Shown: positions 51,868-53,499 of the stretch, piece by piece | Layout of the letters: every line of letters begins with the position of its first letter | Numbering within the stretch: the first letter of the stretch is position 1 | Source of the DNA: a virus | Taxonomy: Duplodnaviria; Caudoviricetes | Direction: 5' to 3' (one strand) | Virus record (IMG/VR): IMGVR_UViG_3300037657_000011 | Coordinates: 1-58,819 of that record | DNA length: 58,819 bases | Position numbers and translations under genes: made by a program | The notes under the pieces: model-generated | Told to the model about the DNA's origin: nothing | Seen by the model: the letters and a program-made list of their open reading frames with translations, nothing else | Database searches by the model: none

Positions 51868-51901
51868 TATTTTACTAAAGTATGATTGTGTAAAATACTA
51901 T
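51864..51901. repeat. AT-rich 12-bp inverted repeat at the convergence of the two operons
   Basis: ATAGTATTTTAC-N14-GTAAAATACTAT. Confidence 0.75.
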
Positions 51902-53499
51902 GCGGCGTATAGCGCAGCGATTGCTTTGAGGATGAACCAATGCGCGTCTGGATGCCATTGTTGTGCTGAGTGCCCACCTTCGGCACTAATGGCACCCATA
52001 ACGGCGGGATCGCCGAAAGCGGCGCGCGCCCATGCGCGCAGGTGAAGGCTGCTGATCTCGCCGTCATCCCCAAAGTCTATGCGCTCAAATATGCGGTGGA
52101 TGTTGCGCTTGCGCATCTCAGGCGGCATCTCTGCCAACACGCCGGCAAGGTCGGACAGTAGCGAGATGGCGCGGTCTGCATCGGTGACGCGGTTCATATC
52201 GGCTTTGGCACGGTGCTGAATGCGCTCCAGAGCGATGTAGCGTTCATCGTATATCTCACGTTTGATCTTGCGGTCAAGCAATAACGACACCAGTTCATCC
52301 ATCCTCACTTGCGCGTCATCGTATTCTGCCTGGGCGCGCTGCCTGCCTTGATCGCCTGTGCGCGCTTCGATATTGCGGATGATCAGCGCGCGCGCTTCGG
52401 GCGGGAATTGCACGTTGCTCATGCGGCGCACAATATCTTCGTCCGCTTGTGTCGCGTCTATCCAGATGCCTGTGCCGCGGGAACGATAGACGTGGCAGAA
52501 GTCGCGGGTGTCTGCTCTAAGGCGCTTGCCTGCATGGTAGGCGATGGGAGTTAGCAGGGGAACCCAGGTGAGGGTGCGCCGTCCTGCGAGTTGGTTGGCG
52601 TGGCGGCGCTCGATCACGGCATTGGCTAGTTCGTCATTGATGATCGGCTCGATGCTAGTGACGCGCCTTGCCTCGCCTGCGCGCGCGTAACGCTCGACGT
52701 AACTCCCCTGCCCTACCAATTCGATGCGGTCATTCTTGGCATCCCAACCGAGGCGCGGGAGATACCCCGCATAGAACAGCACATTGCCAACGATGGTTCG
52801 CACACTCTCGCGCCCAAAACGGCAAGGTCTGCCTGCGCGATCTCGGAAGCGCAAGCCTGACGCATTGGCTTTCTCGGTCACAGTGTCGTAACTCATGGCG
52901 GAGGCGTACCACGAAAGGATGGAGATCGCTGTCTCGGCGTTTTCATCGCCGGTGAAGCGGGTGTCTAGCCCTTTGCCGATGCGTTGCATGCCAAACGGTT
53001 GTTTGCCCCACAGGATGCCGTTGTCGTGATATTGGCGCACACGCTTACGCAGCTTCTTGGCGGTTTCGTCGGCGTAGTGCTGGGCGACACTGGCTTTGAT
53101 GTGCAGCACCAGTTTGACCTCTGGTGTCCAGCCGGTGCGGGTGGTGTCTACGCCCTCAGTGGGGATGATGAGATGCTTGTTGTGGCGTTCGCATAGTTTG
53201 ATGAGCGCGGCAGTATCCTCAACATCGCGCGAGATGCGATCCTGAAATGTGGCGATGATGCCGGCAACGTCTGGATCGGGCAGGCGAGAGATAACTTTGC
53301 GCCAGTCGGGGCGGTGAATGTCTGAGCGTCCGCTGCGATGACCGCCTGCATCGCTGTACGATTCGACCACCCCACCCCGTAGCTCGATCTCCCTTACGTT
53401 GGTGTCGTGTTGGTCTTTGATGCCAATAAGATCACTGTCGGTTCGGACAAGGCTAAGGCGCTCGTAACTGAGCCACTTTGCTGTTGGTGTTTGAGCCAT
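51898..53499 (-). CDS. Large serine recombinase (integrase)
   Basis: YERLS catalytic Ser, SG...RP, DRISR, recombinase PFG and YAG motifs, coiled coil. Confidence 0.92.
   Translation of the reverse strand: MAQTPTAKWLSYERLSLVRTDSDLIGIKDQHDTNVREIELRGGVVESYSDAGGHRSGRSDIHRPDWRKVISRLPDPDVAGIIATFQDRISRDVEDTAALIKLCERHNKHLIIPTEGVDTTRTGWTPEVKLVLHIKASVAQHYADETAKKLRKRVRQYHDNGILWGKQPFGMQRIGKGLDTRFTGDENAETAISILSWYASAMSYDTVTEKANASGLRFRDRAGRPCRFGRESVRTIVGNVLFYAGYLPRLGWDAKNDRIELVGQGSYVERYARAGEARRVTSIEPIINDELANAVIERRHANQLAGRRTLTWVPLLTPIAYHAGKRLRADTRDFCHVYRSRGTGIWIDATQADEDIVRRMSNVQFPPEARALIIRNIEARTGDQGRQRAQAEYDDAQVRMDELVSLLLDRKIKREIYDERYIALERIQHRAKADMNRVTDADRAISLLSDLAGVLAEMPPEMRKRNIHRIFERIDFGDDGEISSLHLRAWARAAFGDPAVMGAISAEGGHSAQQWHPDAHWFILKAIAALYAA
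51953..51994 (+). other. Probable attP inside the integrase 3' end; right arm resembles a tRNA-Leu 3' end
   Basis: TGCCATT..GTGCTGAG-TGCCCACC-TTCGGCAC..AATGGCA imperfect palindrome; contains CCCACCTTCGGCAC. Confidence 0.6.

Follow-up and report, generated by a model that had tools for sequence, protein, structure and literature searches.

The window examined here, IMG/VR record IMGVR_UViG_3300037657_000011, is an entire virus record of 58,819 bp (57.4% GC), and the feature under study is the 3′ end of its large serine integrase gene. The last codons of this gene contain an imperfect inverted repeat, part of which duplicates the 3′ end of a tRNA-Leu gene (Table 1). Considered together with the junctions found in integrated relatives, the arrangement makes it highly probable that the phage attachment site, attP, lies inside the coding end of the integrase itself and mimics the tRNA-Leu 3′ end, such that integration would rebuild the tRNA and replace the last 24 residues of the enzyme.

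Table 1. Coordinates of the integrase gene and of the features at its 3′ end (positions in the window)
Feature	Position	Strand	Place in gene or tRNA	Remarks
Large serine integrase gene	51898..53499	minus	533 aa; stop codon 51898-51900	Identified from ORF, Pfam, PHROG, AF2 and Foldseek
24-residue tail	51901..51972	minus	codons 510-533	Translation HSAQQWHPDAHWFILKAIAALYAA
Proposed attP, 50-bp imperfect inverted repeat	51949..51998		codons 501-517, within the last 33 codons	Integrated relatives have their junction at the homologous place
Left outer arm TGCCATT	51953..51959			Perfect complement of 51988-51994
Proposed crossover dinucleotide CC	51973..51974		Gly509 codon positions 2 and 3; tRNA positions 61-62	Symmetry centre; tRNA identity begins here
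13-nt tRNA-Leu 3′-end copy	51973..51985	plus	T-stem 3′ strand, acceptor 3′ strand and discriminator A	
Right outer arm AATGGCA	51988..51994			Perfect inverted match to left arm

The assignment of the gene product to the large serine integrases is supported at the level of sequence and of predicted structure. The protein carries the nucleophile motif Y12-x-R14-x-S16, with Y12, R14 and S16 invariant across 14 aligned homologues, and residues 26-161 match the Pfam Resolvase family PF00239 (8.7e-11), which identifies a resolvase-type catalytic domain; a match to the integrase family PHROG 95 was obtained at 4.6e-33. The Pfam Recombinase domain PF07508 reached only 17.4 bits, under the cutoff of 21.1. 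An AlphaFold2 (AF2) model with a mean predicted local distance difference test score (pLDDT) of 87.4 aligned in Foldseek over its full length with the cryo-EM structures of the SPbeta, Bxb1 and PhiC31 integrases (best E 1.6e-15), and the alignments to the full-length SPbeta and Bxb1 enzymes (534-567 columns, E 1.6e-15 to 1.9e-13) include the recombinase domain, or first DNA-binding domain (DBD1). In the model, strands 320-348 and 471-487 flank the long helices 367-470, as in a ribbon domain with an inserted coiled coil. The ribbon-like second DNA-binding domain (DBD2; residues 315-350 and 471-487) gave no Pfam zinc-ribbon match and apparently does without the usual four-cysteine zinc site, because the integrase has only three cysteines in total (103, 226 and 335). 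Compared with a phage collection, the integrase yielded a single weak tblastn match (26.9% identity over 38% of the query), and blastn of positions 51000-54000 yielded none.

The two seven-nucleotide outer arms of the repeat are separated by 28 nt, and the ungapped centre of symmetry falls between C51973 and C51974; the sequence, the arms and the CC centre are as an earlier note on this DNA had described them. Around this centre, complementarity extends to 12 of 21 pairs, or 24 of 42 positions. Symmetry is concentrated in the outer arms, where 9 of the 11 pairs at positions 14-24 from the centre are complementary, a value matched at 10 of 58,759 centres of the genome for a range that was picked after the data were seen. 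Relative to its local composition the site folds stably (z = -4.05; none of 200 shuffles was equally stable). The left outer arm is likely to be a motif bound by DBD2. As a whole, positions 51949-51998 have the make-up of a serine integrase attP, namely a length of ~40-50 bp, imperfect inverted symmetry and a 2-bp non-palindromic crossover. The AF2 model assigns a pLDDT below 50 to residues 505-512, a flexible linker encoded by the core of the site; double coding would therefore cost the protein little.

The 13-mer that begins at the proposed crossover occurs once in the genome and is followed by CTA, CCA not being encoded. It is identical to the last 13 nt of the tRNA-Leu(CAA) genes called by ARAGORN in five loci that carry related integrases (L001, L013, L016, L017 and L021), in agreement with the earlier proposal that the right half of the palindrome mimics a tRNA-Leu 3′ end. 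ARAGORN called no tRNA gene in the 58,819-bp genome itself. A pattern combining the CAA anticodon loop with the 13-mer was present in 16 of 101 sampled genomes of Chloroflexota, and its reversed control in none; Chloroflexota, reached via L001, were the one group sampled and are not thereby the host of the phage. In the genome of L001, the one in which the bare 13-mer was counted, three copies are found: the tRNA, the attR site described below and one unrelated coding place. A close homologue of the integrase, P0004, is labelled by its source as belonging to a Terrimicrobiaceae metagenome-assembled genome (MAG).

The decisive comparison is with relatives caught in the integrated state. A search of 5.8 billion proteins returned 26 integrase homologues, 14 of which were aligned, and DNA was obtained for related loci, of which 2 came from genomes, 3 from viral sequences and 37 from metagenomes (of the last, L009-L023 were examined, and L024-L045, which are 23-37% partial matches to other serine recombinases, were left out). 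In the alignment, the SAEGG codons that lie over the 13-mer are conserved amid an otherwise variable C-terminal region, and three homologues continue with antisense-tRNA-like peptides. When ARAGORN was applied to 20 loci, a tRNA was called in the five named above. In all five it is tRNA-Leu(CAA), lies antisense to the integrase and overlaps its 3′ end; L002 has the same arrangement, with the tRNA cut by the contig end. The 3′ end of the integrase gene is present in 15 loci including that of the phage, of which six are integrated (the five and L002) and nine are free forms (this phage, L003, L004, L005, L010, L011, L012, L014 and L015, with L012 and L014 near-identical). In each of the six integrated relatives the break falls at the in-gene core, from which the open reading frame (ORF) runs antisense into tRNA-Leu(CAA), and the junctions thereby bear out an attP in the integrase 3′ end with its crossover at CC. 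The peptide forecast for the integrated enzyme, SAEGG followed by roughly TRTH, appears as AEGGNRTHT and AEGGSRTHT in integrated relatives. Beyond the tRNA, an aconitase-family host gene follows in L001 and L021.

Both junctions of one integrated element could be located. In the MAG record that holds L001, the 13-mer recurs 11.9 kb from the tRNA, and this second copy is attR: it comprises a 19-nt repeat of the tRNA end and, leftward, a 9-nt arm exactly complementary to the arm beside attL. From these two junctions, attP arms separated by 28 nt can be deduced; their centre is the C|C also found in the phage studied here. Read antisense, the L001 attR stores an alternative integrase tail with a tryptophan helix, NRGQDMSLSPALSWWVQALADSRDAL, whereas the integrated L001 integrase ends in NRTHTPVREHDFESCASASSATSARGLTV; the tail exchange is thus directly visible in a relative.

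The L001 element is an island of 11.9 kb (L001 1-11530 together with L008 1501-1519, on the same MAG contig) and not a full phage, and it also holds a tyrosine integrase (L001 3903-4949), a PriCT_1 primase-type protein, an AAA_25 ATPase and a helix-turn-helix protein. To the right of its attR, L008 1520-1610 contains a relic of ~90 nt of another integrase 3′ end (antisense ...ELKPWIAQALGEL...), a trace left by a previous occupant of this tRNA-Leu site. In L021, the integrase (3941-5161) has an internal deletion that leaves 406 aa and removes most of the recombinase and ribbon domains, and nonetheless reads through the antisense strand of tRNA-Leu(CAA); this locus looks like a decaying prophage remnant.

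Variation among the relatives distinguishes conservation of the DNA from conservation of the protein. The core is read as SAEGG in one lineage and, one frame over, as LPKVG in L002, L010, L011, L015, P0017 and P0020, which indicates that the DNA is conserved and excludes a protein motif as its cause. At the homologous centre, 15 of 25 positions are complementary in this phage, 14 in L003, 17 in L004, 16 in L012 and L014, and 12 in L010, compared with 6 to 9 of 25 in the attL sites. Outer arms stand at equal distance in L003, L004 and L012/L014 with other letters, the pairs differing by lineage (TGCCATT/AATGGCA, TGCAAA/TTTGCA and GGCCAA/TTGGCC), and it follows that the symmetry is maintained and not simply inherited. 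The core of L003 is a one-base T-stem variant, and the same attP geometry encloses the acceptor-like cores CGGGGGC and TGACCCC in L004 (1540-1590), L012 (2020-2065) and L014 (1950-1995). These other tRNA-like cores suggest that the family has been retargeted to other tRNAs.

Known phage serine integrases usually have their attP next to the gene, and an intergenic palindrome does occur here. A rival view is that the real attP is this palindrome (51859-51906, 70-115 bp from the in-gene site) or yet another site, with the in-gene repeat and its 13-mer arising from chance and a conserved protein motif. The intergenic element, a 17-nt inverted repeat with 88% complementarity and a 14-nt loop, has the stronger symmetry of the two, as taken up below. 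Against its being attP, it lacks tRNA identity, L003 has no comparable palindrome past its integrase (best other centres 9/25), the six integrated relatives break elsewhere, and the switch between SAEGG and LPKVG removes the protein motif on which the proposal depends. Its position between the convergent 84-aa ORF and integrase gene and its stable fold (z -3.4 for the plus and -3.9 for the minus strand) fit a terminator, and 51859-51906 is probably a two-way terminator. An attP outside the gene is accordingly judged very improbable.

Several observations weigh against placing attP within the gene and need to be set beside the evidence from the junctions. Neither the symmetry of its whole arms nor its folding energy sets the palindrome apart within this genome: a symmetry of at least 12/21 occurs at 137 of 58,777 centres, and 129 distinct 58-nt places match or exceed the in-gene site in fold stability. 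The intergenic palindrome scores 18/25 compared with 15/25 for the in-gene one, and symmetry at the homologous centre is weak in the free forms L005 (9/25), L011 (7/25) and L015 (6/25). Neither this phage nor any close relative was found in integrated form: identity to its integrase is 37-42% for the integrated relatives, and those at 71-77% (P0002-P0004 and L003) are all free forms. Finally, that the true host has a tRNA with this 3′ end is an assumption. Exact-pattern scans of viral contigs, one for an attL belonging to this phage and one for the right arm, returned 0 matches each, and Logan contigs from the three groundwater runs that hold the stretch, and from which it may derive, bridge 51973-51974 without a joint or loose end, a continuity that is uninformative either way because such contigs drop rare variants.

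With attP in the integrase gene, a simple model would be as follows. After infection, the full-length enzyme would recombine attP with the T-stem and acceptor region of the tRNA-Leu gene at CC 51973-51974. The sequence to the right of this dinucleotide, on the side of the integrase body, starts with the 13-nt copy of the tRNA-Leu 3′ end (the isoacceptor, CAA, is judged from relatives), and integration would consequently restore a complete tRNA at attL, with phage DNA supplying its 3′ end. At the same junction, codons 1-509 of the integrase would become fused to the antisense strand of the tRNA, and the 24 tail codons would remain behind at attR, the opposite prophage end. The full-length integrase gene would be regained on excision.

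A profile search of 1.84 billion representatives assigned 165 clusters (50% identity) to the family at E <=1e-30, and many more distant matches likewise end in antisense-tRNA peptides. Seventy family proteins reaching the C-terminal part of the profile were divided by peptide signature into 10 with antisense-tRNA tails and 60 free-like ones, a division that is approximate: P0042, a free form, was scored as integrated, and P0037, P0039, P0046, P0056 and P0076, which look truncated or ambiguous, were counted as free-like. A tryptophan followed by two hydrophobic residues is found within the last 30 residues of 39 of the 60 free-like tails and of 1 of the 10 antisense-tRNA tails, the latter being the misclassified P0042, and the motif is present in both reading-frame lineages. 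In the AF2 model of the present integrase, the low-confidence linker is followed by a helix at residues 517-532 with a pLDDT of 70-88.

It is possible, though less likely than not, that the tail serves as an intrinsic element controlling directionality or activity, in which the Trp-helix 517-532 would dock in cis on DBD2 at the base of the coiled coil and be lost on integration. Enzyme made from phage and from prophage would then differ in reaction direction or in its response to the directionality factor. When the body (1-499) and the tail (500-533) were modelled as a complex, the score was 0.64 (0.64, 0.65 and 0.06 in individual runs), compared with 0.01 for the best of three controls; among solved complexes 58 of 80 attain that mark, and among mismatched pairs 2 of 110. 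Run agreement was at least 0% of contacts, and the partner pLDDT was at least 49. The contacts predicted (residues 358-366, 369, 473, 475, 482-487, 492 and 495) flank both feet of the long helical hairpin, residues 367-470 of the AF2 model, and the complex model supports, without establishing, docking of the tail at the coiled-coil base, where directionality factors bind. It is important to note, however, that body and tail belong to one polypeptide, and the result may reflect ordinary folding alone. Moreover, one of the three runs failed and the alignment was custom-made, and no directionality factor was identified in the genome, in which the ORFs adjoining the integrase have no PHROG match. 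This role for the tail concerns the consequence of integration and is compatible with an attP in the gene.

Alternatively, the tail could act as an ssrA-like degradation tag, as had been envisaged from its sequence, so that a phage-borne enzyme ending in ...LYAA would be short-lived and the prophage form stable. The integrase of this phage ends in YAA, and across the wider family 13 of the 60 free-like tails end in AA (background 1.1% for the dipeptide; binomial 1.2e-13) and 24 of 60 in A (background 11.1% Ala; binomial 7.8e-9), compared with none of the 10 antisense-tRNA tails for AA. An AA ending is absent from all seven closest relatives (P0002-P0008), several of which run 5-25 residues past the helix, and the conserved element is instead the Trp helix. 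A terminal AA is also not specific to the layout, since 5 of 101 more distant serine recombinases end in AA and the PhiC31 integrase in VAA, and the AA counts are not independent, the family representatives being related. In the complex model, residue 532 touches the body. A degradation tag is on balance an unlikely function of the tail.

A third view holds that the exchange is a neutral by-product: attP would have drifted into a dispensable gene end because the module is compact and has to carry a tRNA 3′ end, and both forms of the enzyme would behave alike. The prophage tails vary by lineage (NRTHTPVREH..., SRTHTPEGTRF and VEPTLLSLGTRF), and their differences in length and frame imply that no particular prophage tail is selected. 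Likewise consistent with neutrality are the requirement that the prophage form of the enzyme still excise and the location of the att core in a linker of low model confidence. The retention of the tail helix across frame lineages and differing tRNA-like cores, by contrast, argues for selection on a part that exists only in the excised form. Neutrality of the exchange is accordingly regarded as somewhat doubtful.

Attachment sites inside genes have been described for tyrosine integrases. The integrase of the myxophage Mx8 is a tyrosine recombinase, which separates it in class from the enzyme described here. In Mx8 IntP/IntX the attP lies within the integrase coding sequence, integration gives the gene a new 3′ end, and the change is reported to modify and not to inactivate the integrase (PMC6070905). 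The "suicidal" integrases of the SSV type also have an intragenic attP (PMC8371274); these tyrosine recombinases belong to viruses and plasmids of archaea, and their gene is split in two, whereas here the last 24 of 533 residues would be exchanged. BPs-like mycobacteriophages have an attP inside a phage gene, an attB that overlaps a tRNA gene, a tRNA 3′ end restored by the phage and removal of a C-terminal tag from the protein on integration (PMC9262239). In that case it is the repressor that is edited, by a tyrosine integrase and over a 35-bp common core, whereas here a serine recombinase would edit itself; the probable attP of this genome is in the integrase gene, and not in a repressor gene co-transcribed with a tyrosine integrase. 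The parallel with BPs-type integration-dependent immunity drawn in the earlier note is apt as an analogy, and goes no further than that.

Within the serine integrases, the phage enzyme shares its class and fold (catalytic serine, recombinase domain, and what looks like a ribbon with coiled coil) with those of PhiC31, Bxb1, Listeria A118/LI and SPbeta SprA. It differs from these in that the proposed attP is in the coding end of the integrase itself and the probable target is a tRNA gene, in the extent of target identity (13-19 nt), in a C-terminus that would depend on the integration state, and in a ribbon-like domain that apparently lacks the four-cysteine zinc site. The sites of serine integrases are short, ~40-50 bp (PMC12286644; 10.1101/2025.05.02.651858), and in textbook and review accounts the enzymes use tiny common cores and are not directed at tRNA genes (PMC9262239). 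In SPbeta SprA, an extreme C-terminal element has been linked to directionality control, and residue F532 of Int is also discussed (PMC11722253); that element is permanently in the protein, whereas the tail considered here would be attached and detached by recombination itself. In a literature search that did not extend to subscription journals or supplements, no description came up of a serine integrase whose own gene contains attP or whose target is a tRNA.

More generally, the record represents the complete genome of a temperate phage, as indicated by a repressor-like gene (57368..57796, away from the integrase gene), by its extent as a whole record and by terminal repeats of at least 100 nt. 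The terminal 100 nt (1-100 and 58720-58819) each recur within the record and the terminal 200 nt do not, a recurrence that reflects either a terminal direct repeat or an overlap from circular assembly. The most stable 58-nt fold of the genome lies at 4225-4282 (-39.7 kcal/mol), in a long near-perfect palindrome built on GGGGGTGCAAACTTTGC.

The arrangement departs from the stated picture of serine integrases, in that an entire and sizeable family (the 165 clusters) targets tRNA genes and keeps attP in the integrase gene. For ecology, it predicts that the host has a tRNA-Leu with a 3′ end matching the 13-mer at 51973-51985. For genome engineering, attB can be read from sequence as the 3′ end of a tRNA, and natural retargeting is seen in L003, L004 and L012. 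With regard to mechanism, the family provides a natural experiment in which a large serine integrase exchanges its extreme C-terminus through the very reaction that it catalyses. It is conceivable, if rather less than likely on present evidence, that recombination in this way rewrites the recombinase's own control element: the Trp-helix would be present only on enzyme made from excised or infecting DNA, and the prophage enzyme would differ in directionality, factor dependence or stability. If so, the integrase would constitute a one-protein memory of the integration state, to which a degradation signal in the terminal -AA might be added.

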